From Patescibacteria group bacterium (lineage in GTDB: Bacteria > Patescibacteriota > Patescibacteriia > 2-12-FULL-60-25), in assembly GCA_022703155.1 (NCBI GenBank), contig JAKLEH010000001.1:16482-80481 (forward strand): DNA of 64,000 nucleotides, read 5' to 3'. The notes under the pieces were generated by a model. That model did not search any database and was not told the origin of the DNA. It saw only the letters and a list, made by a program, of their open reading frames with translations. The position numbers and the translations under genes were made by a program. Of this stretch, positions 43,880-60,763 are shown piece after piece. The stretch's first letter is position 1; every line of letters begins with the position of its first letter.

Positions 43880-44968
<1,089 letters not shown>

Positions 44969-44977
44969 ATATGTATT

Positions 44978-45012
44978 GAATAACCAATAATCAATTACCA
45001 ATAAACAAAGGG
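44978..45012 (-). repeat. Heptad array immediately upstream of the recA start (sense: ATTGGTA ATTGATT ATTGGTT ATTCAAT)
   Basis: Read directly from the sequence. It belongs to the same family as the arrays at 16043-16127, 25807-25894 and 41441-41549. Confidence 0.75.
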
Positions 45013-45174
45013 AATTACGACCTTCAAACACTCTGACGTTGCGCGTTGCACGATTCGCGTTTCACGTCCCTGTTCTATATTTGTTCTATATCAAAACATA
45101 CATTACCAAAGAGGTAACAAATCGTCATTGGGGATAAGTTTTTCGCTTCTTGCGGCGCTTAAAGCACGACAGTT

Positions 45175-45498
45175 TTACGCTTGAACGGGCTCAAGCCTTT
45201 GATGTCTGAGGCGGTTTTCGAATCCAACACCTTTTTTAGAATGCAATACGTCAACCAACGCGTCAGTTTTGGCGTCCGCCATCTTGTCGTAGCCGACCAA
45301 GTCACCGCGCAATTGGAGCATCCTGGTGTCCAAATAGTCTTTGGTCACCATGGTGGCTTTTATTTTGCCTACGTCCGATTCCAGCCGATTGAAACGCTGA
45401 TTGATGCCGGTGAAGCGCTCCTCAACGCGCTCTGCAAAATTGTTGATCGCATCCAGCACGTCTTGCGTGGACGGATCCTTATGGTTTCTCTCCTCCAT
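45175..45498 (-). CDS. Hypothetical coiled-coil protein (107 aa)
   Basis: Track ORF with protein-like composition (DVLDAINNFAERVEERFTGINQRFNRLESDVGKIK...). There is no clear SD. Confidence 0.5.
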   Translation of the reverse strand: MEERNHKDPSTQDVLDAINNFAERVEERFTGINQRFNRLESDVGKIKATMVTKDYLDTRMLQLRGDLVGYDKMADAKTDALVDVLHSKKGVGFENRLRHQRLEPVQA

Positions 45499-45589
45499 AT
45501 ATAGCCATGCTAACAGCGAACGTGAACCGAGGCAAATGCGCTAGGTTGAGATATATTTAAGCGATTTGCACATTTGCAGTTATGCACAA

Positions 45590-48805: not shown

Positions 48806-50317
48806 TCATTTTCCTGTGGAAAACCGCGATTTGCGGCTCAAACAAAACCAAATCCAGCCCAACAACGCGTAAGTCGCGAGGCATAAGGCGAAGTCCATGC
48901 GCGCGATGTGGATATCGAGCCACGGCAAAACGTCGGCCAACTTGGCGGACAAAAAAACCGTCTTGGCCAAACCCATGGCCGGAGCGCTGACCAACGCCGA
49001 ACCGACAAAACCTCCCCAAGCCGCGGCCGCGGCGCCGAACAACATGGCGTACGGCACGAGCGGCACGGCCACCACGTTGGTGAACAGACCGGCCAAGGAC
49101 GCGCGTTCGAACGCGAACGCCATGTACGGCAAGGTCATGAGCGTGGCGCCACACGTCGTGGCCACGGTTTCGCGCAATCCCGCGACTTCGGGGATGATTT
49201 TAAAACGTTCGGTAAATATAGGCGTCCAAACCATCAAACCCACGGTCGCCAAAAAAGACAGCGCGAAACCCGCGTCGTACGCCAACATCCACGGGTCGAT
49301 CAGGTTGAGAGCCGCGGCCGAAACGAGCAGCACGTGCCACGTCCGGTGCGGCCGGCCCACGTGCCGCGCGAGCAACACCAGCCAACCCATGGCCGCGGCC
49401 CGCGCCACGGACGCGGAAAATCCGGTGAACGAAACGTAAGTGAACAGAGCCGCGGACGTGGCCCAAAACGCCTGCCGTCGCCACAAGCCCAGTCCCATGA
49501 GCAACGCGAACACGACCGACGCCACGATGGTGATGTTGGAGCCCGAGACCGCGATGAGGTGCGTGAGTCCGGCGCGGCGAAACCGGTCTTGCGCCTCTTT
49601 GGACATGCCGCGTTCGCCGTACAACATGCCCGCGATGAGCGCGCCTTCGTCCCCGGGCATGGCCGATGAAATGCGCGCCGTGGTCCAACTCCGCAAGTCC
49701 GCGAACGTTTGACGCGCGTCCCACCACGCGGGCTGAGCGGCCACGGTCAAATCCTTGGCCGAACACCTGGCTTGCGCTCGATGGTAATTGGCCGCATACC
49801 GCCGGTCCAAATCCTCTTCACCTTTCTCCAAACGCTTGAACGCGCAGGTGAACTCGATTTTTGAACCGATGGGAACCGGCTGTTTAAGGTTGATTTGCGC
49901 CACAATGCCCTCGATCGCAACCTTGGCCTGCAAACCGTACATGCCGGACTGCACGTCCGCGACCGTTCCGACGTACCGATTCTCACCGGACGGAATCTCC
50001 GACGGAGGCACCGTAAGGTCAAAACGCAAAATGCCGACCGCGCACGCCAATGCGAAGAAAAACATCCGACGCGCCCTAGCCTCGCTCGCGGACAAAACGC
50101 TCAAACCCAAAACCAACGTCGCCATGCCGCACCACACCCACGTAGGCGTGGACGCGAGCGGATAGAACGAATGGATGGCGACGCCGGCCAAAAATCCGGC
50201 CATGATTAAAACAGGCGTTTGCCCAACGCAAACCGCAATTCCGTCGCGCACGCGTTTCCATGTTTCCGATAACATAAAACCCCACTCAAAACAGTGAGGC
50301 TTTGCGTTCGCTCGCAC
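48806..50317 (-). CDS. comEC: ComEC/Rec2 family competence channel protein (no C-terminal MBL domain)
   Basis: 503 aa and polytopic, with the motif RRAGLTHLIAVSGSNITIV typical of the ComEC competence domain. Confidence 0.85.
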   Translation of the reverse strand: MRANAKPHCFEWGFMLSETWKRVRDGIAVCVGQTPVLIMAGFLAGVAIHSFYPLASTPTWVWCGMATLVLGLSVLSASEARARRMFFFALACAVGILRFDLTVPPSEIPSGENRYVGTVADVQSGMYGLQAKVAIEGIVAQINLKQPVPIGSKIEFTCAFKRLEKGEEDLDRRYAANYHRAQARCSAKDLTVAAQPAWWDARQTFADLRSWTTARISSAMPGDEGALIAGMLYGERGMSKEAQDRFRRAGLTHLIAVSGSNITIVASVVFALLMGLGLWRRQAFWATSAALFTYVSFTGFSASVARAAAMGWLVLLARHVGRPHRTWHVLLVSAAALNLIDPWMLAYDAGFALSFLATVGLMVWTPIFTERFKIIPEVAGLRETVATTCGATLMTLPYMAFAFERASLAGLFTNVVAVPLVPYAMLFGAAAAAWGGFVGSALVSAPAMGLAKTVFLSAKLADVLPWLDIHIARMDFALCLATYALLGWIWFCLSRKSRFSTGK

Positions 50318-50436
50318 CTGCTTAAACTATACATTTATTCATCCAACTGGCAAGATGTGCATATCTATCCGCGATGTTTGCGTATAGAAGAGAGTTAGGC
50401 GAAATAGTAAAATTTATATTTTTTTAAAAGTAAAGT

Positions 50437-51123
50437 ATGAGCACAATTCAAAAATATTATGGGAAAGGTGGCACATATTTAAAAGACCACAAAGATTATT
50501 TTTCTGATCAAAATTTAAAAAGAGATTCAGAATTTATTATTCAATCACTTAAACTCACCAAACAGGAAAAGTGTTTGGAATTACAATGTGCCCACGGAAG
50601 ATTGACGGTTGAGTTAAAAACAAGAGGATATGATATTGATGGATTGGATTTTTCAACCCACATGATTGATTTGGCAAAAAAACTAGCAGAAAATAATAAA
50701 TTAAAAATTAATTTCTTTATTGAAGATCTGAATAATTTTAAATTACCTACAAAATACTCAAAAGTGTTTTTATTTTTCCCTGATTGGACAGACTTAAATT
50801 TTGAAAAAGTACTTCCGAATATCAGCAAGATCATAAAAAGAGGAGGACTTTTTCTATATGATCATGACAATCTTTTCAGGATCTGGAATTATCTTGAAAA
50901 AAATCCAAAAGAAAAAAATAAATTTATTTTTAATCCCATAGCCATGACCCTTAAAGAAAAGGAAGGTGAAATGGGTGATAGATATTATACTTATCCAGAA
51001 TTAGAAAACATTTTTAGACAGAATGGATTTAAAATTGTTGCCACTTATGGTAATTGGACAGTAGAAAATAGCGAGTATAATTACAATAGCCCAAGATTGA
51101 GAATTGTAGCTAAAAAAATATAA
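50437..51123 (+). CDS. Class I SAM-dependent methyltransferase (cassette 1)
   Basis: 228 aa with a Rossmann-type motif region: KCLELQCAHGRLTVELKTRGYDIDGLDFSTHMIDLAKK. Confidence 0.7.
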   Translation: MSTIQKYYGKGGTYLKDHKDYFSDQNLKRDSEFIIQSLKLTKQEKCLELQCAHGRLTVELKTRGYDIDGLDFSTHMIDLAKKLAENNKLKINFFIEDLNNFKLPTKYSKVFLFFPDWTDLNFEKVLPNISKIIKRGGLFLYDHDNLFRIWNYLEKNPKEKNKFIFNPIAMTLKEKEGEMGDRYYTYPELENIFRQNGFKIVATYGNWTVENSEYNYNSPRLRIVAKKI

Positions 51124-51136
51124 ATTTTACTACATC

Positions 51137-51214
51137 GCCTAACACTGGATATGCGGCTTCGCTTCGCTTCACCCATATCGCTAATACAACATCGCATATC
51201 CAGAAACGTTATGC
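51137..51214 (+). repeat. attC-like site 1 (78 nt)
   Basis: GCCTAAC-a-CTGGATATGCG...CGCATATCCAG-aaac-GTTATGC. The inner arms are 11 bp and perfect, with an asymmetric spacer as in attC R/L boxes. Confidence 0.55.
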
Positions 51215-51377
51215 GCAATTCAAAAAATATTTTACTAACGGGGAATCAAAATGACAGGCTTTCAAAGGGGAATGGATTTGATTTTTTCTTTATTTGAAGA
51301 GTGGGGATAATACGGTGTTTTCTCCACTCCGTTCCGAAAACGATTGATAAAAGATTTTAATCACTAACTTCACTACT

Positions 51378-51920
51378 ATGCAAAAGACAAAAAGATTCAT
51401 AGTTTGGACGATTATTTTAGTTCTTGCACTAACTATTCTTATAGCGACGCAATTCACCAACGAAGTGCAATGGAATGAAGTTATTGCTTACATAGTCATA
51501 CTGCTGATCGTTGGTGGCGTTTACGAATTGTGGCGATGGCTGAAGACTCGCGAGAAAACATATCGTATCGCTTTCGGCGTTGGGCTTGCGGGAGTGTTTC
51601 TGCTCGGCTGGGTTAGTGGCGCTGTTGGTATTATTGGAAGTGAAAACAACTCTGTAAATTTGATGTATTGGGCAATACCTATCATCGGATTTATCGGCTC
51701 TCTTATTTCACGCTTCAATCCGCGCGGAATGGCGCTTACATTGTTTACGATGGCACTTGTTCAATTCTTGGTTCCAGTAGTTGCATTGATTATCTCGCCT
51801 GAAGTTAGCTGGGGCGATGCGGGAGTTATTGGCGTGTTTGCTGTTAATTCCATTTTTGCTGCGCTGTTTGCCGGTTCGGGTTTACTGTTTCAGCGTGCAG
51901 ATAAATTTGAAAACCGATAA
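51378..51920 (+). CDS. Hypothetical polytopic membrane protein
   Basis: 180 aa with about 5 hydrophobic helices. I recognise no family. Confidence 0.65.
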   Translation: MQKTKRFIVWTIILVLALTILIATQFTNEVQWNEVIAYIVILLIVGGVYELWRWLKTREKTYRIAFGVGLAGVFLLGWVSGAVGIIGSENNSVNLMYWAIPIIGFIGSLISRFNPRGMALTLFTMALVQFLVPVVALIISPEVSWGDAGVIGVFAVNSIFAALFAGSGLLFQRADKFENR

Positions 51921-52172
51921 CCCGAAAAAATACATTTAAATTAGGAGTTTTGAAAAATGAAATTCATCCCTACCCCTCTTTTGACTCGCCAATATGGAAA
52001 ATCAAATTTAGAAGAATTGAGGAAAGCCTATCATGATGAGTAAGAACGAAAAAAAAATTGAATTTTGTTTTTTGTTTATTAAAAAGCTGTATAAGATGTT
52101 TTCTCTACCTCGCTACGAAAACGGTTAATTATATTAATGACCTGAAAGCAATTTAGAAAGAAATAATCTATT

Positions 52173-52949
52173 ATGATTTTTGAGCTTTCTTCAAAAAATA
52201 AAATGGTTTTGCTTATTACCTCGCTCATTGTTTTAGCGTTAGGTGTTTTTATAATTTTTTACTCCTCAATTATTTTTCAGGAAGGCAATCCTTGGCCACA
52301 AATGAAAGGGATAGCCCAATTAACTTTTGGTAATAAGGCTGTCGTAAAATTAGATATTGGAGAAAACAAATATATTACAAAAAGCGATAATCCGGAAATC
52401 ATTAAAACTTTTATGAAAGATAAGGGCTACGAATTCACGGAACAAATGGGAGCAGGCTATCTTTTTGAATCAGGCTCCGGAACAAGCGCGGTTGCCGTCC
52501 ATAGATATTACAGCCGTTATTATTCTTTATGGAGTATTGGTGAAAATTTAACCGCTAAAGACACTGCCTTGGCCGACGAATTAAGAGAATGCCTGCCCAA
52601 AAGCGATATGGCGAGTCATGAGAGATGCAAAGAACTGTTGGCTACAATTAAAAATTTTGACAATTGCGTTGAGGCGGGTTTTCCCGTTATGAAGTCTAAT
52701 CCGCCGCAATGTGCTACTCTTGATGGCCGTAATTTTACAGACGAAAGCAACGGCGACTGGAATATGGCTCTAATAGCTCTTAAAAATTGTGAAGTGGAAA
52801 GAGTATTTCAAAGTCATAGCAAATTGGTAACTCTTAGGCTTAAAAATGGCGATAAACTCACAACTTATGAGCCAAGAATTGATGATGTTATGAAAGCGGT
52901 AGAAAGTTTGAATGGTAAATGTGGCACTATTATATTGAGTACAGAATAA
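52173..52949 (+). CDS. Hypothetical protein with an N-terminal TM anchor
   Basis: 258 aa track ORF with AT-rich codon usage matching the island. Confidence 0.65.
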   Translation: MIFELSSKNKMVLLITSLIVLALGVFIIFYSSIIFQEGNPWPQMKGIAQLTFGNKAVVKLDIGENKYITKSDNPEIIKTFMKDKGYEFTEQMGAGYLFESGSGTSAVAVHRYYSRYYSLWSIGENLTAKDTALADELRECLPKSDMASHERCKELLATIKNFDNCVEAGFPVMKSNPPQCATLDGRNFTDESNGDWNMALIALKNCEVERVFQSHSKLVTLRLKNGDKLTTYEPRIDDVMKAVESLNGKCGTIILSTE

Positions 52950-52989
52950 AATGAATACTTTATAAACTTTTAATTTGTAAAGGAATATT

Positions 52990-53472
52990 ATGAAAATCAA
53001 TTCAAAATACATCAACGAGTATAAAAACATTCTCCAATCTACCGACTTGCAAAAAGGATATCAAGAATTTGTTAAATTCTTTAGAGGATTTAGGACTTAT
53101 TTAGCAGAGAATTTGCCCGAATATAAATTTACAGGGAACATTGTTGAAAATAATATGGATTATTCTTACTTTCAGTTTTCTAATGATGACTTGCAATCAA
53201 AAGGCTTAAAATTTGTTATCGCTTTTACACATAATAAATTTGAATATGAGATATGGTTATCTGGAATGAATCGCAAGATACAAATCAATTATCATGGTAA
53301 ATTAGGTAAAGCGAAACATAAATACATAATGTCTCCAGATCCAAATAGATTTGATTATATCTTAAAAGAAAAGTTATTTGATGAAGTAAATTATGATGAT
53401 TGTGAAAAACTTTTTGATACCGCAATAACCAACATTAAAGTATTCTCGGAGAAAGTAAGCAAAATGGTATAG
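52990..53472 (+). CDS. Hypothetical protein (160 aa)
   Basis: Track ORF 40 nt after the previous stop. I recognise no family. Confidence 0.6.
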   Translation: MKINSKYINEYKNILQSTDLQKGYQEFVKFFRGFRTYLAENLPEYKFTGNIVENNMDYSYFQFSNDDLQSKGLKFVIAFTHNKFEYEIWLSGMNRKIQINYHGKLGKAKHKYIMSPDPNRFDYILKEKLFDEVNYDDCEKLFDTAITNIKVFSEKVSKMV

Positions 53473-53508
53473 TTTTTGTATAAGTGAATTTTTGAAAACT
53501 GAAAGAGA

Positions 53509-53583
53509 GGTTCGCCCCTCGGCTCGGAGCTCACCCAAACTGTTCCCTACGGTCGCAGCTTCTCATATCCGCAAACGTCAGGC
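53509..53583 (+). repeat. Degenerate attC-like remnant (right half retained)
   Basis: GGTTCGCCCCTCGGCTCGGAGCTCACCC...CTCATATCCGC-aaac-GTCAGGC matches the centre and right arm of sites 1 and 3. The left R''/L'' arm is missing. Confidence 0.4.
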
Positions 53584-53710
53584 GACATATCTCCAAGTCC
53601 TTTTTTTAAAATAAGGAACGAGTGAAAAATTTTATTAATTTTAATGAGGGGAAAATAAGGAGTTTTCTCCGCTATCGCTACGAAAACAATTTATATATAA
53701 TTAGAGTATT

Positions 53711-54430
53711 ATGAAAAATCTCAAGAAATATGCAAAAGCCATTATTTTACTAACAGTTATTATTTTGTTAGTCTGCTTTTCATTTTATAAGATCAGTAAA
53801 TCAAGAAGTTCTCAATTTTTTGGTGGTCTTACAAGTCATGTAAACACGGAAGAAAAAATAATTGCCCTGACATTTGATGACGCTCCTACTGAATATACAA
53901 ATGAAATCTTAGAAATTCTTGATGATAAAAACGTTAAGGCAACATTTTTTGTCGTTGGGAAAAATTTCGAAAAATATCCCCTTGAAGGAGAGGCAATAAT
54001 TGAAAATGGGCATGAAATTGGGAATCATTCGTATTCACATCAACGTTGTATATTTAAATCACAAACATTTATTGAATCAGAGATTGAAAAAACAAATACG
54101 CTTATTCATGACCATGGCTATAAGGGAGAAATCACATTTCGCCCTCCAAATGGGAAAAAATTATTCGGTTTGCCCTATTATCTGAATAAAAATAATATCA
54201 AGACTATCATGTGGGATGTTGAACCCGATACATATGTTTCAGGTGATGCCGATGCTATTGTAAAATATACAGTAGAGAATACAAAACCCGGATCAATAAT
54301 TCTACTTCATCCGCTTAATGGCACGGCGGGTGAAGCAGACAGAGAAGCATTACCTAAAATAATTGACGAACTAAAAGCAGGCGGATATTCCTTTGTTACA
54401 GTATCTCAATTATTAAAATACGAAAACTAA
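53711..54430 (+). CDS. Polysaccharide deacetylase (CE4/NodB domain) with an N-terminal TM anchor
   Basis: NodB motifs IALTFDDAPT, HEIGNHSYSH and ILLHP. Confidence 0.85.
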   Translation: MKNLKKYAKAIILLTVIILLVCFSFYKISKSRSSQFFGGLTSHVNTEEKIIALTFDDAPTEYTNEILEILDDKNVKATFFVVGKNFEKYPLEGEAIIENGHEIGNHSYSHQRCIFKSQTFIESEIEKTNTLIHDHGYKGEITFRPPNGKKLFGLPYYLNKNNIKTIMWDVEPDTYVSGDADAIVKYTVENTKPGSIILLHPLNGTAGEADREALPKIIDELKAGGYSFVTVSQLLKYEN

Positions 54431-54486
54431 ATTAATTACGTTAAAGACACGTTGCACTCTCACTTCGCTATCGCTCCGTTCGGCTC

Positions 54487-54584
54487 GCCTAACACAGTAT
54501 ATGCGGTTCGCTCGTCGCACTTCGCTTTCCCATATTTTGCTCCACTACGCTCCGCAAAACATCGCATATACTGGAACGTTATCT
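54487..54584 (+). repeat. attC-like site 3 (98 nt)
   Basis: GCCTAAC-a-CAGTATATGCG...CGCATATACTG-gaac-GTTATCT; homologous to sites 1 and 5. Confidence 0.55.
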
Positions 54585-54658
54585 GAAATAATTAAAAGTT
54601 TTTTCGCCTTCGGCGGAATTATTTGGGGCTATTTTTATTTAAATTATGAAAATTAATT

Positions 54659-55213
54659 TTGTACGCCTGGGAAAAAGATGGTCTGGCTGCTTTTACTCAA
54701 GCAAAGGATTGGATTGATATAAAAATTAATTATCAGCAATTTTTTTATAAAGGAAAGATAGATAAAAATTTACTTGATCAGTTGGTTTATATTATTTATC
54801 ATGAGATGCACCATGCCTGTCGGGGATATGCTGGAATTTTGCCAAAAAATAAAGAACATATTTTGATTAATTCTGTTATTTCCGAGGGGCTAGCGGATTA
54901 TTTTGCATTAGAACAATATCACAGTAAATTTTTAACTGAGACAAAAAGTTTTGATTTTTCAGAAATTAGTCAATGGATTAACAAGTTTGGCAAGGTTATG
55001 TGGAATAAAGAAAGCGCTGATGATTCTTGGTTGTACGGAGGGCGGGAAAAACCAAAAATGCTTGGATACAAAATTGGCAGATATATAGTTCAACAGATTG
55101 AAGAGAAAAATCCAAAATTCAACCCCGTTAATTTAGTTAAATCAACCCCTGAAAAAATTCTTGAACTAAGCGAGGTTAATTTTTTTAATTTAAATAAAAA
55201 TAGCCCCAAATAA
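54659..55213 (+). CDS. DUF2268-like putative Zn-metallopeptidase (HExxH), possibly 5'-truncated
   Basis: 184 aa with a TTG start in the track and an IIYHEMHHACRG motif. The family call is from memory. Confidence 0.55.
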   Translation: MYAWEKDGLAAFTQAKDWIDIKINYQQFFYKGKIDKNLLDQLVYIIYHEMHHACRGYAGILPKNKEHILINSVISEGLADYFALEQYHSKFLTETKSFDFSEISQWINKFGKVMWNKESADDSWLYGGREKPKMLGYKIGRYIVQQIEEKNPKFNPVNLVKSTPEKILELSEVNFFNLNKNSPK

Positions 55214-55255
55214 TCCGTTTTGCCTAATCGGTAAAACAAAACTTTTAATTACATC

Positions 55256-55332
55256 CGATAACACGGCATATCTGCAAAGGCTAAAGCCACATCCGCCCAG
55301 GGCGGACGTCAGATAATGCCGATACGTTAAGT
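55256..55332 (+). repeat. attC-like site 4 (77 nt, divergent sequence)
   Basis: CGATAAC-a-CGGCATATCTG...CAGATaATGCCG-atac-GTTAAGT. There is one extra unpaired A in the right arm, and the right end fits GTTRRRY. Confidence 0.45.
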
Positions 55333-55389
55333 GCAAATTGAATTTTGGTTTATACTCTAATCAAATATTTACTTAATAACAAAAAGTAT

Positions 55390-55779
55390 ATGAAAGTTTT
55401 TGCACAATTTGTTTCAAGTCTTGTGGGCGGTATATTACTAGGAATCCTTGGCCTGATAGTCGGTGCTACAATAGGCGGCAATTTTGGCTTCCCTGAATTT
55501 GGCGGTAATGCTGGCTATGAAGCAGGTGGCGTATTTTTTGCAATCGTCGGAATATCTGCAGGCAGCCTTCTTGGCATTATGACTGCTAAAAAACTACAAA
55601 AAGAAACTCAAAAATATCTGACCGCCTCAATTGCCGCCACGGTCGTCATGGTTGTCATTGGAGTAATTCTCTTTGATTACAATATGCCGCCGGCAATTGG
55701 TCTCACGATACTTCTTATGCCACCGGTCGTGCTAACACTAATCACAAATTGGCAAAAATTATCCCAAGCCAAAAATTGA
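55390..55779 (+). CDS. Small hypothetical membrane protein
   Basis: MKVFAQFVSSLVGGILLGILGLIVGATIGG... with 4 TM-like segments. ATG 55390 is preferred over the track TTG at 55345. Confidence 0.6.
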   Translation: MKVFAQFVSSLVGGILLGILGLIVGATIGGNFGFPEFGGNAGYEAGGVFFAIVGISAGSLLGIMTAKKLQKETQKYLTASIAATVVMVVIGVILFDYNMPPAIGLTILLMPPVVLTLITNWQKLSQAKN

Positions 55780-55803
55780 TGGTTCTAACCAAAATTCAAC
55801 ATC

Positions 55804-55925
55804 ACTTAACACAGAATATGCGGTTTCGCTCGGTTGCGTCTCGCTACACCCATATTTGGCACTGGTGAGTCGCCTTGCTCCAAATTATACCAGTGCCAAA
55901 CATCGCATATTCTGGAAAGTTATAC
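55804..55925 (+). repeat. attC-like site 5 (122 nt), right end of the AT-rich island
   Basis: ACTTAAC-a-CAGAATATGCG...CGCATATTCTG-gaaa-GTTATAC; homologous to sites 1 and 3. Confidence 0.55.
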
Positions 55926-56045
55926 GATGTTCTAAACGAAAAAAATATTTGAATACGTTTAGTTTTGGCTTCTCCATTTTTTATTGAAAAAACGCGCCTT
56001 CCGAGGAATCTCGAACGACGCGTGATAAGCGAAGCGGGAGTGCCC

Positions 56046-56258
56046 TTACTCCACCTTGATGATCGGCATGGAATCGGGCATGCACGAGAGGATGCCATCC
56101 TTCTGACGCATCGCGTTGTCGCGACCGGCGCCTTCAATCTTCTGGAAGATGTAGTGCGGACCCTTGAAGCCGCCGTGTCCGCCGTCGTCTCCCGGCTGCG
56201 GCAAACCGATGAACCGATCCCCGGCATTCAGTTCCCCGAACGTGAGATATGCGCTCAT
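56046..56258 (-). CDS. Small hypothetical protein (70 aa), stand-alone transcription unit
   Basis: Strong SD (AGGAGG, 5-nt spacer), its own TTGACA-17-TAGGGT promoter and a downstream hairpin plus U6 terminator (~55985-56020). Confidence 0.6.
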   Translation of the reverse strand: MSAYLTFGELNAGDRFIGLPQPGDDGGHGGFKGPHYIFQKIEGAGRDNAMRQKDGILSCMPDSMPIIKVE

Positions 56259-56291
56259 GTCGGAACCTCCTATGGTGATTTGCGTCTTGCG

Positions 56292-56320
56292 ACCCTAATC
56301 GATCGCGAACCGTCTGTCAA
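56292..56320 (-). promoter_or_regulatory. Promoter of the 70-aa ORF (TTGACA-17-TAGGGT)
   Basis: Minus strand: TTGACA is the reverse complement of 56315-56320 and TAGGGT is the reverse complement of 56292-56297, with a 17-nt spacer. Confidence 0.45.
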
Positions 56321-56341
56321 GAATTGAAAGAAGTAAAATAT

Positions 56342-56365
56342 AAAAAAGAGGCTAGGCCTCTTTTT
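56342..56365. terminator. Terminator downstream of trxB
   Basis: AAAAAAGAGGC-tag-GCCTCTTTTT, about 20 nt after the trxB stop. Confidence 0.6.
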
Positions 56366-56383
56366 CGATTCTCGTCTTTTGGT

Positions 56384-57331
56384 TTACGCCTTGCTTTCCA
56401 AATACTTCTTCGCGTCCAGTGCGGCCATGCAACCGGTTCCCGCTGACGTGATGGCTTGGCGGTACACGCGGTCGGCCACGTCGCCGGCGGCGAATATGCC
56501 TTCCACGTTGGTTTTGGTGCCTTGCGCTTTGATGTAACCTTCCTCGTCACATTCGATGAGATCGCGGAACGGCTCCGTATTGGGCCGGTGTCCGATGGCG
56601 ATGAACGCGCCTTCGACCGCGATTTCCGTGGACTCCCCGGTGACGTTGTTCTTGGCGCGGATGCCGGAGAGCTTTTGGTCGCCCAAGAATTCGTCCACTT
56701 CGGTGCTGAACATGAACGTGATTTTGGGGTTGTTCTTGGCGCGTTCGAACATGGCGCGGCTGGCGCGCACCCCACTCTCCGGCTTGCGGACCAGAACGGT
56801 CACGGATTCGGCGAATTTGGACATGGTCTCCGCGTCTTCCATAGCCACGTCCCCCGCGCCGATGACCGCCACCTTCTTGCCGCGGAAAAAGAAACCGTCG
56901 CACGTGGCGCAACCCGAGATGCCGCGGCCTTTCAGCTTCTGCTCCGACGGGATGCCCAGCCACTTGGCCACCGCGCCCGTGGCGACGATGACCGCGCGCG
57001 CTTGGCCCGGTTGGCTGTCCGATTCCAACGCAAAGCCGTTTTCGTTCTTCACGATTTTGGTCACGGATCCGCTGATCAGTTTCGCCCCCAGTCTTTCGGC
57101 TTGCTTCTTGCTCCTTTCCATCAGTTCCGGCCCGAGGATGCCCTCCGGGAAACCGATGAAATTCTCGACCTCGTTGGTCGTGGTCAGTTGGCCGCCCGGC
57201 TCCGGACCCATCCAAAGGGCCACGGAAAAACCGGCGCGCACGGCATAAACCGCGGCGCTATATCCGGCCGGACCCGCGCCGATAACGGCGATGTCGCACT
57301 TGATCGTTTCGTTTGGCATAGCGCTCATCAT
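56384..57331 (-). CDS. trxB: Thioredoxin-disulfide reductase
   Basis: FAD motif GAGPAGYSAAVYA, redox-active CATCDG and NADPH motif VIGAGDVAMEDA. Confidence 0.95.
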   Translation of the reverse strand: MMSAMPNETIKCDIAVIGAGPAGYSAAVYAVRAGFSVALWMGPEPGGQLTTTNEVENFIGFPEGILGPELMERSKKQAERLGAKLISGSVTKIVKNENGFALESDSQPGQARAVIVATGAVAKWLGIPSEQKLKGRGISGCATCDGFFFRGKKVAVIGAGDVAMEDAETMSKFAESVTVLVRKPESGVRASRAMFERAKNNPKITFMFSTEVDEFLGDQKLSGIRAKNNVTGESTEIAVEGAFIAIGHRPNTEPFRDLIECDEEGYIKAQGTKTNVEGIFAAGDVADRVYRQAITSAGTGCMAALDAKKYLESKA

Positions 57332-57632
57332 GCTATGCCTGTGTCAGCCGCTTGGCAACCCTTTCGTTAACAACATTCGTCATTCCTGCGAAAGCAGGAA
57401 TCCAGAAAAACCGCCTTGACCTTTTTGTGATACGGCCTTGACACAAAACCATTGACCGCCCCTGAACCAGCGTACGCAAACGCGATATAATATTGGGGAA
57501 GGTTGCTTGTACTACAAGCATGGAGGTAGCCTTCCCAATTCATACCCGCTCACGTAAAAACGCCCAGTGCGAGGTGCTTTTTGAGGCCGCACCAAAGACT
57601 GAGGTCGCTATGCGGAGACCAGTAAAATCTGG

Positions 57633-57893
57633 ATGATTTGGATAAAAACTATGGCTGGCCCAGAATTTATGCAACAACCAAAATGGCACGTAACACCACA
57701 TGGTGAGGAATGGAAAGTGCAGCGCAGTGGTTCAGAACGCGCTACCGCGATTGTTGAGACCAAGAAAGAGGCTATCGAAATTGGCCGTGAGACTGCTAAA
57801 AACGGCCAAGGTCAGTTAATTGTTCACGGTAAAGACGGCATCATACAATTGGAATGGACATACGGTCCCGACCCTAGGGACATTAAAGGCTAG
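57633..57893 (+). CDS. DUF2188-like small protein
   Basis: WHVTPHGEEWKVQRSGSERATAIVETKKEAIEIGRETAKNGQGQLIVHGKDGIIQLEWTYGPDPRDIKG matches my memory of the DUF2188 pattern. The start is probably ATG 57651. Confidence 0.7.
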   Translation: MIWIKTMAGPEFMQQPKWHVTPHGEEWKVQRSGSERATAIVETKKEAIEIGRETAKNGQGQLIVHGKDGIIQLEWTYGPDPRDIKG

Positions 57894-57913
57894 TTTTAAG
57901 TAAAGGCCTCGAC

Positions 57914-57943
57914 AAAAAACCACCAAAAACAAGGTGGTTTTTT
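57914..57943. terminator. Bidirectional terminator between the DUF2188 gene and the RM gene
   Basis: AAAAAACCACC-aaaaacaa-GGTGGTTTTTT. Confidence 0.7.
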
Positions 57944-57976
57944 GTAAAGCTATTTGGGATACACCACCTAATTAAC

Positions 57977-60763
57977 TTACGCCATTCGTTTCAGTGGTCG
58001 ACTATTTTCTTTATTCTGCTCGCGATGCGATGCTTCCACCAACTCCATATACACCCCAAACAAAAACTCCAGCCTCTGCGTTTCATTTTCGAATTTCTTG
58101 GTGCCGTAGCAACGGTCAACGACCTTATCCAATGTCTGATGCGCCTTCACCAAATCCGGTGGCATGGAATTCGGGTCATACAAATCCGCGAGCGTGGCGC
58201 CTTGATGTTTGGCGCGCGTATCCAATACGCCTTGTGCCGCAACCTCAACGGCTTTGACCCTTTCCGCGCTCGGACTTTGTGGCCATGGGAAATTATTGTA
58301 AACGATATCTTTTGAATAGCGGTAGCGACTCTCTAAACGACCACAGACTTGTCGCACCCAAGCCATGTGCATTTCAGAGGTCAAGATGCCGAAATGATAC
58401 ATGGTAGCATCCGGAACAATGTGCACCGAATCGCTCGACAGAGTGTCTTTACCGATAAAGCCAATCGGGATGAACCTTCTGCGCTCCGAAGATACGCGCG
58501 GCACAAGCAAATATTCATGCTCGGGGATATTCTCCACGTGAAATCTCGTGGGTGTTTCGGCTAATTTTTGCGTGGGCCTGCTTTTACTTGCCAACCTGAA
58601 TTTTTTTACCGCTTCGACGCGCTTCATGGCCTCCGGCATTTTGCGCAATTGTTCGGGCGGGCAATCACCGAGCCACAAACACCAACGCTCATATCCGTTG
58701 ATGAATTCGTCCGATCCTAGCCAGCGGCGGAAATACGGTTTGGCTTGCGGCTCCTTTTTTAAAAATTCGGCTTTTTCTTCTGGGGTGAACAGATAGCTCC
58801 CGTCATCAATCGGCTTGTTGCCGATGCCGATTAACGGTACGTCGCACAACGGTTTGCTTCTTGATTCAATAAGCACGCTCGGCGCGTCCACCAAATACGG
58901 ATTGATGTTCTGCGCAGTCAGTTTGTGCGGCTCGCCGCGTACGTCCTCGTATTCAAAAATATATTTCTTGGCGCTGTCCAGCAAGGCGAAACCTATAATC
59001 ACGCAAAAAACTGCCGCACGGCCCGGGGCTTCGTTGGTCCACTTGAAGGTTCGGTGCGCGAATTGGATACGGATGCCGTAGTTCTCCAGCAGGGGTTTCC
59101 AAAGAATCCCGACCTGTTCGCCCTGGGTGATGGAATTTGTGGAAACAAATGCCACGCGAACAACCGTTCCTTGTATATATTCCGCGGCTTTGATGTACCA
59201 GCCTGTCACGTAATCCAATACGCCTGCTCCGTGTATGTCTTTAAACAAACCAGCGAGTTCGACTCGTTGTTCGTCGGACATGATTTTTGAACCGACAAAC
59301 GGTGGATTGCCCAAAATGTAACTCACCCTGTCTTTGGTTATCACGTCGTTCCAATCCAATTTGAGCGCGTTATCGATATGGATGTTGGGATGGGCCTTGA
59401 GCGGCAAACGAACAAAATTCTCGCCAAACTCGGCGCTCAATTCCATGTTCATTTGGTGGTCCGTGAGCCACAAAGCCAACTCGGCCACGCGCGCCGGGAA
59501 TTCTTCGATTTCTATGCCGTACATCTGGTCCACGTTGACCTGCGAGAAGGTGCCGAACTGCAAAACCGTGGCTTGACGCTGGTTGGTGTCGACCACGATC
59601 TTCATGCGCTTCAAAGCCTCAAGTTCCAAACGGCGCAGCTCCCGGTAAGTCACGACCAAAAAGTTTCCGCACCCGCAGGCCGGGTCCAAAAACTTCAAAT
59701 CGGCTAGTTTTTGCTTGAACTCCGCAAGCTTCTTTTTGTTGTTGCCCGCGGCTTCCAATTCGGCCTTCAAATCATCCAAAAACAACGAATTGATGACTTT
59801 CAAAATGTTGGTTTCCGAGGTGTAGTGCGCACCCAAATCGTGCCGTGCCTTTTCGTCCATTACCGACTGGAACATGGAACCGAAGATGACCGGCGAAACC
59901 TTGCCCCAATCGAACGCCGAACATTCGAGCAGGGTTTGGCGCATGGCCGAATCGAAAGCCGGGAATTCCAAAGTCTCATGGAACAGGTGGCCGTCGATGA
60001 ACGGCAATTTGGCCAAATCCTCGTCCAAGGTCTTTTGGCGCTGGTCCGGCGGCGTGTTGAGCACTTGGAATATCTGCGACAGCACCAAACCAGTGTCCGT
60101 ACCGTCTTCATTCGTGCGGTTGGTGATGTAAGATTCGAATGATTCCAATTCGTCGAAAATGCCCGTATCGTCGGCGAAAAAACAATACACCAAGCGCGTC
60201 AGCAAAACTTCCAGCTTATGGCCCGCATAACCCACCCTTTTCAAGGCGTCATGCAGCTTGGCTATGGCCTTGACGGCCTTTTGGTTGACCGGATCCTCGG
60301 GTTTAACCTCCACGGTCTGGTAGCCCATCAAGAATCCGAAAAGTCTGACGTGCTTGGGGAGGTCCTTAAGTTCGAACTCATACTTTTTTACTTCTTGAGG
60401 ATTCTCCAAAACGTAAACGTGGAAATGCGCAAAATCCGAGACCACGATGTGCGTTGGCGCGACTTTTTCCGGCAAACCCATGGCATACTCGACGGCTTGC
60501 TGGTAGGCGTCTTCCAGATTCTTACCCGCGGATTTATGTTCGACTATCAACTTACCCGGATACAGCAAATCGATACTGCCGTTTTCGCCCTCATATTTTT
60601 TGACGCTTTCCTCAAAAGTCGCGACCCGTTTGCGGCTAATGCCGAAAATCTCAAAAAACTCGTTCCAAAAGGTCTGTTTTTCACTGGCTTCTTTTTTGGC
60701 GCCAGCCCAATCTTTGGAAAAAACCAAAGCCCTATTCTTAGCCTCGTTCCAGCTTATTGGCAT
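57977..60763 (-). CDS. MmeI-family (Type IIL/IIG) single-chain restriction-modification enzyme
   Basis: 928 aa. N-terminal nuclease-like D...EHK (GSIDLLYPGKLIVEHKSAGKNLEDAYQQAVEY), SAM motif I FLDPACGCGNFLV, N6-adenine motif IV NPPFVG and a long C-terminal target-recognition region. Confidence 0.85.
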   Translation of the reverse strand: MPISWNEAKNRALVFSKDWAGAKKEASEKQTFWNEFFEIFGISRKRVATFEESVKKYEGENGSIDLLYPGKLIVEHKSAGKNLEDAYQQAVEYAMGLPEKVAPTHIVVSDFAHFHVYVLENPQEVKKYEFELKDLPKHVRLFGFLMGYQTVEVKPEDPVNQKAVKAIAKLHDALKRVGYAGHKLEVLLTRLVYCFFADDTGIFDELESFESYITNRTNEDGTDTGLVLSQIFQVLNTPPDQRQKTLDEDLAKLPFIDGHLFHETLEFPAFDSAMRQTLLECSAFDWGKVSPVIFGSMFQSVMDEKARHDLGAHYTSETNILKVINSLFLDDLKAELEAAGNNKKKLAEFKQKLADLKFLDPACGCGNFLVVTYRELRRLELEALKRMKIVVDTNQRQATVLQFGTFSQVNVDQMYGIEIEEFPARVAELALWLTDHQMNMELSAEFGENFVRLPLKAHPNIHIDNALKLDWNDVITKDRVSYILGNPPFVGSKIMSDEQRVELAGLFKDIHGAGVLDYVTGWYIKAAEYIQGTVVRVAFVSTNSITQGEQVGILWKPLLENYGIRIQFAHRTFKWTNEAPGRAAVFCVIIGFALLDSAKKYIFEYEDVRGEPHKLTAQNINPYLVDAPSVLIESRSKPLCDVPLIGIGNKPIDDGSYLFTPEEKAEFLKKEPQAKPYFRRWLGSDEFINGYERWCLWLGDCPPEQLRKMPEAMKRVEAVKKFRLASKSRPTQKLAETPTRFHVENIPEHEYLLVPRVSSERRRFIPIGFIGKDTLSSDSVHIVPDATMYHFGILTSEMHMAWVRQVCGRLESRYRYSKDIVYNNFPWPQSPSAERVKAVEVAAQGVLDTRAKHQGATLADLYDPNSMPPDLVKAHQTLDKVVDRCYGTKKFENETQRLEFLFGVYMELVEASHREQNKENSRPLKRMA

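Follow-up and report, generated by a model that had tools for sequence, protein, structure and literature searches.

Sedentary chromosomal integrons and CALINs, as defined by Cury et al. (2016) and Neron et al. (2022; PMC9024848) and exemplified by the Vibrio superintegron (VCR), are made up of small cassettes that share one orientation, mostly carry a single ORF and are foreign in composition; each is terminated by a hairpin site with AAC...GTT cores that resembles the other sites of its family. Crossover takes place in the right box, hence the box of site n matches site n + 1; at one end lie an attI site and the gene of a tyrosine recombinase in divergent orientation, and integrase-less clusters are common. 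In archaea, integrons have been described from MAGs of uncultivated lineages including DPANN (Nanoarchaeota), mostly as CALINs and with attC shared between domains at 95–100% identity; that study counted a protein as IntI only if it had the additional domain, which gave 6 in 75 genomes, and contains no mention of CPR (Ghaly et al., 2022, Sci Adv; PMC9668308). The locus analyzed here, considered together with its homologs in other genomes, resembles both groups in these traits. We regard it as probable that it is an integron-type cassette cluster without a recombinase in 64 kb (a CALIN), situated in a hypervariable comEC–trxB spot of an Uhrbacteria-like CPR bacterium; the core of this reading, an integron-type array without an integrase, was proposed in an earlier note on the same DNA and is borne out by complementarity between neighboring boxes, stem covariation, homologous arrays flanked by a recombinase, and the different cassettes of a relative.

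The window (the whole 64-kb stretch of DNA that was analyzed) contains an AT-rich island of 5.6 kb (~50330–55990; ~32% GC) between flanks of 55–65% GC. In the GC profile of the window, values fall from 0.58–0.67 to 0.28–0.44 over ~50.3–55.9 kb and then rise again, in agreement with the earlier claim of a dip after comEC and a recovery near 55.95 kb. The left host flank carries comEC (48806–50275, − strand; gene call of 489 aa; Pfam Competence, 2.6e-50), the start codon of which is 118 nt from the first crossover point of the array. On the right, a short AT-rich tail past the last crossover point (55926–55990, + strand) gives way to host GC and to a 70-aa ORF and a TrxB-like reductase (56046–57331, − strand; Pfam Pyr_redox_2). 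All seven island ORFs of at least 129 aa are on the + strand (ORF list), as had been stated, and the Pfam-assigned cargo comprises a SAM methyltransferase, a DUF7000 protein, a CE4 deacetylase and a 5′-truncated DUF2268 (HExxH) protein; the methyltransferase, the deacetylase and the HExxH protein had been recognized from sequence alone. The Pfam search gave no significant family for three island proteins, at least two of which are membrane-protein-like by sequence. RpoB places the host in the Patescibacteria near Uhrbacteria, in agreement with the CPR-type affiliation that had been raised conditionally, and the reported lack of a tyrosine recombinase holds across the 64-kb window.

Four solid, co-oriented attC-like sites (+ strand) were identified when the 64-kb window was scanned with R1, a covariance model built from related sites. 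Site 1 (51137–51214, 78 nt; match 51131–51220) scores 82.0 bits and has the arrangement GCCTAAC-A-CTGGATATGCG ... CGCATATCCAG-AAAC-GTTATGC; site 3 (54487–54584, 98 nt; match 54481–54590) scores 104.8 bits; and site 5, the last of the array (55804–55925, 122 nt; match 55798–55931), scores 115.8 bits. The divergent site 4 (55256–55332, 77 nt; cGATAAC ... GTTAAGT; match 55250–55338) was outside the seed and scores 37.0 bits (E = 2.6e-7). On the reverse strand, the same sites reach merely ~17–22 bits, and beyond these four R1 gave zero significant matches over the whole 64 kb. Sites 1, 3, and 5 have both ends in common (repeat families D1–D3), as claimed in the earlier note, and the right-end motif is present in three copies in the window vs 0.02 expected, all of them in the island. 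The extended upstream flank of site 3 (54448–54486) is 97% identical to the flank at 23 other loci. The earlier note had listed repeats in five spacers; the fifth, a degenerate right-half remnant with the end GTCAGGC (53509–53583, + strand), scores 11.9 bits with R1 (E = 1.3), below significance, and folding gave no stable structure for it, and we therefore count four solid sites (R1 37–116 bits) and one remnant. The remnant retains ..CATATCCGCAAAC-GTCAGGC, of which six of the seven final positions pair with the next R″ box, GCCTAAC.

The bottom-strand fold of site 1 contains a TTT bulge and has a free energy of −15.4 kcal/mol, that of site 4 has z = −4.75, and the fold of site 5 has z = −4.9 to −5.3. 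As a canonical control we used the attC of the aadA1 cassette (In2, plasmid R100; class 1 integron), which likewise follows its ORF on the same strand and folds well as the bottom strand; its R box of 7 bp contains AAC/GTT, and the hairpin also includes another paired box and a loop at its tip. However, the bottom strand of the control has single-base bulges on the 3′ arm and an approximately symmetric spacer, whereas in the window sites the 5′ arm is bulged by 3 nt and the L stem runs uninterrupted for 11 bp. The bottom-strand folding called for in the earlier note yields hairpins, with a conserved 3-nt bulge on the cleaved arm in place of canonical extrahelical bases.

Cassette 1 (50395–51208, + strand) comprises an ORF for a SAM-dependent methyltransferase (50437–51123; Pfam Methyltransf_25) and its own site; its outer stem (50401–50426/51111–51136) is within the inverted repeat I2, and the reconstituted site folds at −37.3 kcal/mol vs −20.1 in array context. 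The composite “cassette 2” (51209–53577, + strand) consists of a leader module (51215–51350) and ORFs at 51378–51920 (membrane protein), 51958–52053 (31-aa remnant), 52173–52949, and 52990–53472 (DUF7000; Pfam). The conserved leader and the small-ORF module are each common to 16–17 other arrays, R1 has zero matches inside the composite, and three ORFs within a 2.4-kb stretch lack sites; this unit likely represents fused cassettes that have lost their own sites. Cassette 3 (53578–54578, + strand) encodes a CE4 polysaccharide deacetylase (ORF 53711–54430; Pfam Polysacc_deac_1, 2.6e-31). Cassette 4 (54579–55326, + strand) carries the 5′-truncated DUF2268 ORF (54659–55213; profile positions 62–194 of 195) and long terminal inverted repeats (I4, 54578–54602/55238–55262; I1, 54618–54656/55176–55214), and its reconstituted site folds at −40.2 kcal/mol vs −24.8 in array context. 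Cassette 5 (55327–55919, + strand) encodes a small membrane protein (55390–55779; ORF list), begins with GTTAAGT, the exact complement of the R″ box ACTTAAC at 55804, and shows an outer stem (TGAATTTTGGTT/AACCAAAATTCA) on folding.

At the left junction (50380–50405, + strand), GCGTATAGAAGAGA and GTTAGGCGAAAT meet at an attI-like site in which crossover would fall between G50394 and T50395. The lone GTTAGGC at 50394–50400, already taken to mark this junction, pairs without mismatch with the R″ box of site 1 (GCCTAAC at 51137), as part of a longer complementary stretch of 36 nt with 92% match (I2). The junction matches a pattern of ..ATAGAAAnGA followed across the crossover point by GTTAnnnGAAAT, located 41–149 nt from the recombinase start in most related loci examined. 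In a position weight matrix it ranks first among the 866 GTTR sites of the window, and its attI score of 5.7 bits vs a median of ~10.5 for recombinase-adjacent junctions is a modest match. Given this resemblance to attI, the array appears to be the integrase-proximal part of an integron, the integrase having been lost or never present here, and not like the “distal part” of a sedentary integron that the earlier note had offered as one option.

The R′ box of each site and the R″ box of the next pair in the window as GTTAGGC/GCCTAAC, GTCAGGC/GCCTAAC, GTTATCT/cGATAAC, and GTTAAGT/ACTTAAC. Across loci, the boxes of adjacent sites are fully complementary in 53 of 95 pairs, vs 22 of 206 (11%) within sites and 9.7% at random; such pairing between the right box of one site and the left box of its successor is what cassette insertion leaves as its signature. 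In 189 pairs the site interior is linked to the left (upstream) flank, and in none to the right flank alone, which places the crossover in the right box (R′), as in integrons. Pairing in the L stem reaches 97%, with covariation (column pair 18/127: UA in 35 sequences, AU in 27, GC in 6, CG in 3), and the variable-region hairpin covaries too.

The site family is present in >100 public genomes, mostly of CPR bacteria with some DPANN; a 24-nt motif search recovered 110 loci in species-level genomes vs ~4 by chance, the majority in CPR. Arrays, which also occur in complete CPR genomes such as CP060226.1, contain up to nine sites, which are 54–213-nt hairpins in a single orientation; the ORF is co-oriented with the site in 84 of 90 cassettes (median 806 bp, 35% GC). 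An IntI-like recombinase is encoded at 18 of the 110 loci, upstream of the sites and divergent at 17, and in the reciprocal test all four recombinase loci picked by protein search have upstream, divergent sites; the association between arrays and recombinase is therefore two-way. This enzyme is an IntI/XerA-like tyrosine recombinase of ~270 aa with an attI-like site alongside, in which the IntI-specific domain was looked for and is absent. It resembles archaeal XerA and bacterial XerC/D in size, in the order Phage_int_SAM + Phage_integrase and in lacking the IntI insertion, and scores 212–232 bits with NCBIfam XerA and 149 bits with PDB 4A8E. Unlike these, it best matches integron integrases (TIGR02249, 205–233 bits; VchIntIA, 2A3V, 153 bits), has the IntI-like C-terminus ..KSPL, and its gene, accompanied by an attI-like site, diverges from neighboring cassette arrays instead of occupying a dif locus. 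The designation of the sites as integron-type stands as regards attC-like arrays with an IntI-like recombinase; the system is non-canonical in having neither the IntI-specific domain nor canonical extrahelical bases. In the literature searched, we found no description of this system, which CPR bacteria and DPANN archaea have in common and the recombinase of which lacks the defining domain of integron integrases.

It is possible, although we consider it unlikely, that the island is an inert relic, built as an array in a low-GC donor and delivered as one block by ordinary horizontal transfer, with fossil sites. The missing recombinase, the 32% GC of the island vs 58% in the host, and the presence of one degenerate site and several fused cassettes in a row are all consistent with this, as is the 100% identity of the island among four independent metagenome assemblies, such that no ongoing shuffling was seen. 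However, relatives share the flanks of the island and differ in content between trxB and comEC, and the comparison of cassettes that the earlier note had proposed revealed in the closest relative (RpoB 94% identical, ComEC 69%) a low-GC mini-array that occupies the same comEC-adjacent spot and differs in both its cassettes and its site, which suggests turnover at the locus. Furthermore, the four sites have remained intact, outer stems and perfect own-box complementarity included, and the left end resembles attI more than a random breakpoint.

We consider it improbable that the island belongs to a canonical integron as its distal or an orphan part, served by a standard IntI with the additional domain that is encoded elsewhere, the short recombinase being a bystander. 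The sites do keep AAC/GTT cores and the R-L-variable-L-R layout, and bacteria are reported to have attC in common with archaea, among them some DPANN, and bacterial IntI to be able to use the archaeal sites (PMC9668308). Nevertheless, the short type accounts for all 17 array-adjacent and all four reciprocal recombinases, which take the divergent position that is canonical and have an attI-like site alongside, and a long IntI is absent from the ~120 related loci retrieved from public genomes and assemblies. The unpaired bases also depart from the canonical extrahelical-base layout: in contrast to sedentary integrons, the CPR-type sites have a 4x1-nt spacer between R and L, the unpaired bases of which are invariant and lie on the cleaved arm, and an L box without an extrahelical base. 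Further differences from sedentary integrons are a recombinase without the IntI-specific insertion of ~43 aa, site sequences conserved between phyla and even domains, a cassette-specific outer stem beyond the R box, and hosts that are CPR bacteria and DPANN archaea; unlike the archaeal integrons, the system has a recombinase that would fail the IntI filter applied to those (PMC9668308).

The sites are intergenic hairpins, GC-richer than the AT-rich island that holds them, in keeping with REP, MITE, or terminator-type repeats that are intergenic by chance, but this reading is very improbable: the sites are confined to the island, so that the dispersed family named in the earlier note as fatal to the cassette reading is excluded, all copies are co-oriented and are recombinase-adjacent in other genomes, there is no T-run, a terminator scan was at chance level, and neighbor-box complementarity and one-sided linkage are unexpected for such repeats. 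Despite the nearly equal scores of the recombinase for archaeal XerA and IntI, Xer/dif-type modules moved by the housekeeping Xer recombinase, such as the pdif modules of Acinetobacter plasmids, are hardly credible, given hairpins in one orientation in place of 28-bp sites in alternating orientation, and a separate XerC/D-like gene that in these genomes is outside the array position (L057).

For the integron-type cassette cluster, we propose that a tyrosine recombinase would insert cassettes of this family in tandem, with strand exchange between G and TT in the right box of a folded hairpin site, each cassette having the layout TTAnnn, leader, ORF, nnnTAAC, L″, variable hairpin, L′, RAAC, and G. 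The first insertion point would be the attI-like site upstream of comEC (..ATAGAAGAGA, then GTTAGGC), and the partner enzyme would be the short recombinase found beside homologous arrays in other CPR genomes. We infer recombination of a folded single strand, the strand used, present-day activity of the array, and the mode of cassette expression. Since the window lacks the partner recombinase, its cassettes would be frozen unless a copy encoded elsewhere in the genome moves them in trans. Judged from sequence comparisons, the site family appears to be an integron variant with a short recombinase, widespread in CPR bacteria and DPANN archaea.

GC content in the window is 0.58–0.67 up to ~50.2 kb, 0.28–0.44 over 50.3–55.9 kb and 0.56–0.63 thereafter, a drop and recovery that agree with the AT-rich island recognized after comEC in an earlier note on this DNA. 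The island (~50330–55990) lies between comEC (48806–50275, minus strand) and a 70-aa ORF followed by a TrxB-like gene (56046–57331, minus strand), and all seven of its ORFs are on the plus strand. Pfam assigns a SAM methyltransferase (50437–51123), a DUF7000 protein (52990–53472), a CE4 deacetylase (53711–54430) and a 5′-truncated DUF2268 HExxH protein (54659–55213), three of which (methyltransferase, deacetylase and HExxH protein) had already been named as cargo; no significant family was assigned to the remaining three, at least two of which have membrane-protein-like sequence. The host RpoB is 80–86% identical to proteins named Patescibacteria, Uhrbacteria or Magasanikbacteria, which identifies the host as a high-GC CPR bacterium and settles a proviso of the earlier note.

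Both ends are common to the sites at 51137–51214, 54487–54584 and 55804–55925, and the 24-nt right-end motif AACATCGCATATnnnGnAAnGTTA is present in three copies in the window (0.02 expected), in the island only. The site layout is nnnTAAC-A-[C nnn ATATGCG]-variable-[CGCATAT nnn G]-RAAC-GTTAnnn, with outer boxes (R'' and R') enclosing the two arms (L'' and L') of an 11-bp inner stem, in which three variable positions compensate between sites (TGG/CCA, AGT/ACT, AGA/TCT). Under R1, a covariance model derived from 79 aligned sites, these three window sites score 82–116 bits as members of the seed alignment, and the divergent fourth site (55256–55332), which is outside the seed, scores 37 bits (E = 2.6e-7); on the reverse strand the window sites reach only about 17–22 bits. 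R1 detected nothing significant over the 64 kb beyond these four island sites; of the five repeat-bearing spacers proposed earlier, four are therefore recovered and the right-half remnant (53509–53583) is non-significant (11.9 bits, E = 1.3). The window sites are 77–122 nt long, within the size range of canonical attC sites (about 57–141 nt) as previously suggested, and they share with the latter a second paired box and a variable terminal part. Rfam gave no match at any site and no relevant family in the island at E up to 10, and zero families at gathering score in the whole 64 kb, so the window has no tRNA, rRNA or riboswitch calls. A second GC dip (0.47–0.49) at 44750–45500 contains a weak, non-significant R1 match (45017–45150; 12.2 bits, E = 1).

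G-T pairs make the minus (bottom) strand of the sites fold better than the plus strand, and the folded bottom strand has a 3-nt TTY bulge between two stems. In these bottom-strand folds the bulge is on the 5′ arm and the L stem is without one. In the aadA1 attC of R100, used as a control and confirmed in its intI1-aadA1-qacEdelta1 context, bulges of one base each are on the 3′ arm of the bottom strand and the spacer is roughly symmetric, whereas the family sites have an uninterrupted 11-bp L stem and a 4x1 spacer, with the extra bases, invariantly AA when read on the top strand, on the 5′ (cleaved) arm. The layout of extrahelical bases in canonical attC sites (on the R''–L'' arm, which is the 3′ arm of the bottom strand) is not matched by the window sites.

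In the window, a right box complements not the left box of its own site but that of the site after it: GTTAGGC (50394) with GCCTAAC (51137), GTCAGGC (53577) with GCCTAAC (54487), GTTATCT (54578) with cGATAAC (55256), and GTTAAGT (55326) with ACTTAAC (55804). This complementarity continues outward over 25–36 nt as inverted repeats, and a site rebuilt as in an excised circle folds at −37.3 kcal/mol for cassette 1 (−20.1 in array context) and −40.2 kcal/mol for cassette 4 (−24.8 in array context). Such pairing of a right box with the left box of the following site is a cassette signature, and it can be read straight from the window. The same pattern is found in related loci fetched from public genomes and assemblies: of 95 pairs of neighbouring sites, 53 show complementarity at all three variable bases between R'(n) and R''(n+1) (mean 2.29 of 3), whereas within sites complementarity is full in 22/206 (11%; mean 1.29), with 9.7% for random pairs. 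Between loci, the left flank and site interior are shared and the right flank differs in 189 pairs; interior and right flank are shared with a different left flank in 0 pairs, and identical right flanks are found after different site types. As linkage of the interiors is confined to the left flank, each site goes with the ORF upstream of it, and the right box (G|TT) holds the junction. These comparisons place the crossover in the right core, with the core of site n forming part of cassette n+1, as in integrons.

The position of the bulge on the “wrong” arm could instead be taken to mean that the opposite strand, or the left box, is used for crossover. Site interiors linked only to the upstream flank speak against this, as do the complete last site (55804–55925) and the left junction, where R1 finds no site interior. 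The outer stem might alternatively be the true L box, but cleavage takes place at the AAC end of the R box, and that end faces the inner 11-bp stem. Xer/dif (pdif-type) modules would be flanked by 28-bp XerC/XerD sites of alternating orientation, and the actual sites are long hairpins in a single orientation. A dispersed REP/MITE family, which the earlier note had set against its own proposal, is at odds with the confinement of all window copies to the island and with a motif scan of viral contigs that gave 0 matches. A reading of the sites as terminators is unsupported, as promoter and terminator scans both gave chance level only.

The site family extends well beyond this host. The right-end motif has 19 specified bases, for which about 4 chance matches are expected in a one-genome-per-species collection of 1.2e12 nt; it was matched in 110 stretches. 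By database label the hosts are overwhelmingly Patescibacteria/CPR (Magasanik-, Uhr-, Peri-/Peregrini-, Dojka-, Kerfeld-, Woese-, Shapiro-, Gracili-, Berkel- and Saccharibacteria), with one single-cell genome (L008) and one complete chromosome (CP060226.1, L092) among them; further carriers are several Woesearchaeota and scattered MAGs under other labels, some clearly mislabelled. Array-bearing MAGs L059, L010, L013, L017 and others are labelled Gammaproteobacteria or Pseudomonadales, labels that look wrong because isolate names (e.g., HK-STAS-PATE-16) and gene content point to Patescibacteria.

Conservation spans the entire site, beyond the motif. Across the 79 aligned sites the 11-bp L stem is 97% paired, with covariation at two positions (column pair 18/127: UA 35, AU 27, GC 6 and CG 3 sequences), and 8/10 pairs covary in the variable-region hairpin. 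R1 identified 241 sites in the related loci, mostly co-oriented within a locus and up to 9 per 8 kb; site length in the family is 54–213 nt (median 113). For the 206 of these that contain both AAC and GTT, the core consensus is RYMTAAC/GTTRKNY, compared with RYYYAAC/GTTRRRY in canonical attC sites; the strict forms RYYYAAC and GTTRRRY occur in 41% and 27% of sites, respectively. The longest ORF is on the top strand of the site in 84/90 cassettes, and the median cassette is 806 bp with 35% GC. Past the R box are conserved unpaired pentamers (ACATC left, GAAAT right), followed by a cassette-specific stem of 10–20 bp; duplexes between the 35 nt that follow R'(n) and the 35 nt that precede R''(n+1) average −13.4 kcal/mol, compared with −7.2 kcal/mol for mismatched cassettes (Mann-Whitney p = 3e-19). 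No equivalent of this outer stem is known to us among described attC sites. In nearly every variable region there is also a near copy of the L' box CGCATAT, namely CCCATAT (alignment columns 60–66; e.g., 51173–51179), which could pair with L'' to form an alternative, shorter hairpin.

An IntI1 query (validated at 799 bits against NCBIfam NF011946) identified a homologue by tblastn in 18/110 loci, and in 17 of these 18 the recombinase is upstream of the sites and transcribed away from them, the classical intI-attI-cassettes layout. Near the recombinase start is a conserved junction, ..C[AG][GC]ATA[GA]AAA[CA]GA|GTTAnnnGAAAT, 41–149 nt downstream of that start in 12/14 loci examined. Reciprocally, when four recombinases were taken from a protein search in which the DNA motif was disregarded, their contigs carried upstream, divergent R1 sites in 4/4 cases, with five sites at one locus. 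These short recombinases (269–296 aa) show all catalytic residues (R, K, HxxR, H, Y) in their sequences. Their best NCBIfam model is the integron integrase TIGR02249 (205–233 bits, below the cut-off of 265), matched in two stretches that skip model positions ~180 to ~225–230; the archaeal XerA model scores about as high. The best solved relative is VchIntIA (2A3V), to which the alignment jumps from residue 201 to 245; residues 202–244 are thereby skipped, which indicates that the IntI-specific insertion is absent from the short recombinases. In public databases they are named only “tyrosine-type recombinase/integrase” or “XerD,” and at least 6,199 protein clusters match a short recombinase at E up to 1e-40. 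At locus L120, a 6.4-kb block of defence-type genes (1520–8000; RadC-methyltransferase fusion, AlwI-type endonuclease, N4/N6 methyltransferase and OLD-like ATPase) lies between the short recombinase and the first site, and may be a giant cassette.

In the window itself, tblastn with IntI1 and 16 array-associated recombinases detected no tyrosine recombinase in the 64 kb, in accord with the initial reading of the sequence; canonical integrons differ in having intI, usually divergent, beside the array. The left junction, GCGTATAGAAGAGA|GTTAGGC (GCGTATAGAAGAGA|GTTAGGCGAAAT), resembles junctions beside 14 recombinase genes. It ranks 1/866 among GTTR sites of the window, but its score of 5.7 bits is at the low end of recombinase-adjacent junctions; right boxes of attC sites are strongly negative in the same test. 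It is the GTTAGGC (50394) that the earlier note gave as left junction. The junction is 118 nt from the comEC start, approximately where the recombinase gene begins in complete elements. Based on this position and the attI-like junction, the array is read as the putative integrase-proximal end of an element without its integrase, in preference to the distal part of a sedentary integron that had been suggested before.

Within the array, the interval 51209–53577 has no site and ends in the degenerate remnant; it contains three ORFs and a 31-aa ORF remnant, along with conserved non-coding modules also present in 16–17 other arrays. It probably represents several cassettes merged through site loss. 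The 31-aa ORF remnant and its surroundings (51943–52053) are 92–96% identical to segments of 16 other arrays, where the segment is usually ~140 nt upstream of a 110-nt site type; it resembles a widespread mini-cassette whose site has been lost in this array. A cassette leader of ~150 nt at 51215–51350 has the form GCAATTCAAAAAATATTTT ... GGTGTTTTCTCC-n-CGCT-n-CGAAAAC, ending in a 6-bp hairpin. Partial copies are found at 52070–52125 and 53625–53685, and three ORFs start 26–48 nt downstream of leaders. By blastn the module occurs in 17 loci; in L037, L077, L017, L033 and L030 it comes directly after attI. It has no Rfam match, and candidate roles are promoter, 5′ UTR element and protein-binding site. 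A 39-nt inverted repeat (54618–54656/55176–55214; 95% complementary) surrounds the truncated DUF2268 ORF, overlapping its start and stop, and its left arm also lies within a leader common to the first cassette of L089.

Across four independent assemblies, of which two come from JGI samples, one from ENA and one from an SRA run, the island is 100% identical, and no within-strain variation is visible among them. The closest relative (RpoB 94%, ComEC 69% identical) has a different low-GC mini-array in the same position beside comEC, comprising a 54-bit site, a 38-nt mini-site (ACTTAAC..GTTAAGT) and outer stems, which disfavours a single fixed block at the lineage level. The strain comparison called for earlier thus shows differing cassettes in the closest relative but identity among the four assemblies. 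The trxB–comEC interval is completely different among relatives, with distinct gene sets in three Patescibacteria genomes (L115, L117 and L118), and it is a hypervariable hotspot independent of the cassette array; the interval contains no sites in L117 and L118, so a simple “empty site” was not recovered. By tblastn, the seven cargo proteins have no homologues in ~114 related loci, and the same cassettes are therefore not traceable elsewhere. Adjoining trxB is a lower-GC stretch (57333–60763; GC 0.46–0.52) with a complete MmeI-type restriction-modification gene (928 aa, all five MmeI Pfam domains) and a DUF2188 gene, the latter annotated at the corresponding place on L111, an identical contig; this stretch may be a further acquired segment.

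In the general view, integrons are rare or absent beyond a few bacterial phyla, and the additional domain of IntI is treated as essential for attC recombination. Canonical integron integrases carry this domain near patch III (Messier and Roy, 2001, as cited in PMC9668308). Archaeal integrons, some in DPANN, have been described in which six IntI were found in 75 genomes, all with the additional domain; most are CALINs (clusters of at least two attC sites without an integrase nearby), with attC sites common to both domains (Ghaly et al., 2022; PMC9668308). The short recombinase, being without this domain, would fail the IntI filter of that study. The literature searched yielded no paper on integrons in CPR bacteria, on attC in DPANN beyond Ghaly et al., or printing the motif.

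With four sites within 4.8 kb and no recombinase in 64 kb, the island is a CALIN, provided that the sites count as attC-type. The family fails two canonical integron tests, the IntI-specific domain (present in canonical integrases, absent from the short recombinases) and the layout of extrahelical bases. In every other comparative respect it behaves as an integron, with a predicted mechanism: window and family share with canonical integrons co-oriented tandem cassettes, each ORF followed by its own site, and the G|TT crossover in the right core indicated by box and flank comparison. The initial proposal of an integron-type cassette array without integrase in a CPR host is essentially right, given the sites, the box complementarity and the missing recombinase. 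We consider it fairly probable, from comparative sequence data, that the island belongs to a large CPR/DPANN integron lineage of which we found no description, with a minimal ~270-aa IntI/XerA-like integrase that does without the “indispensable” IntI-specific domain and attC sites that combine an invariant cleaved-arm bulge with a cassette-specific outer stem.

If so, integrons would be a leading means by which ultra-small symbiotic prokaryotes exchange genes. Such a lineage would also explain the apparent absence of integrases from most “archaeal integrons,” and, were the system functional, standard tools that require an IntI-specific profile would systematically under-call such integrons as CALINs. 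A functional system would also offer a natural “minimal” integrase–attC pair for questions of strand choice and hairpin recognition. The window array marks a hypervariable locus adjoining the DNA-uptake gene comEC. If functional, the family would mean that CPR and DPANN, with their tiny genomes and symbiotic lifestyles, draw on a shared cross-domain cassette pool.
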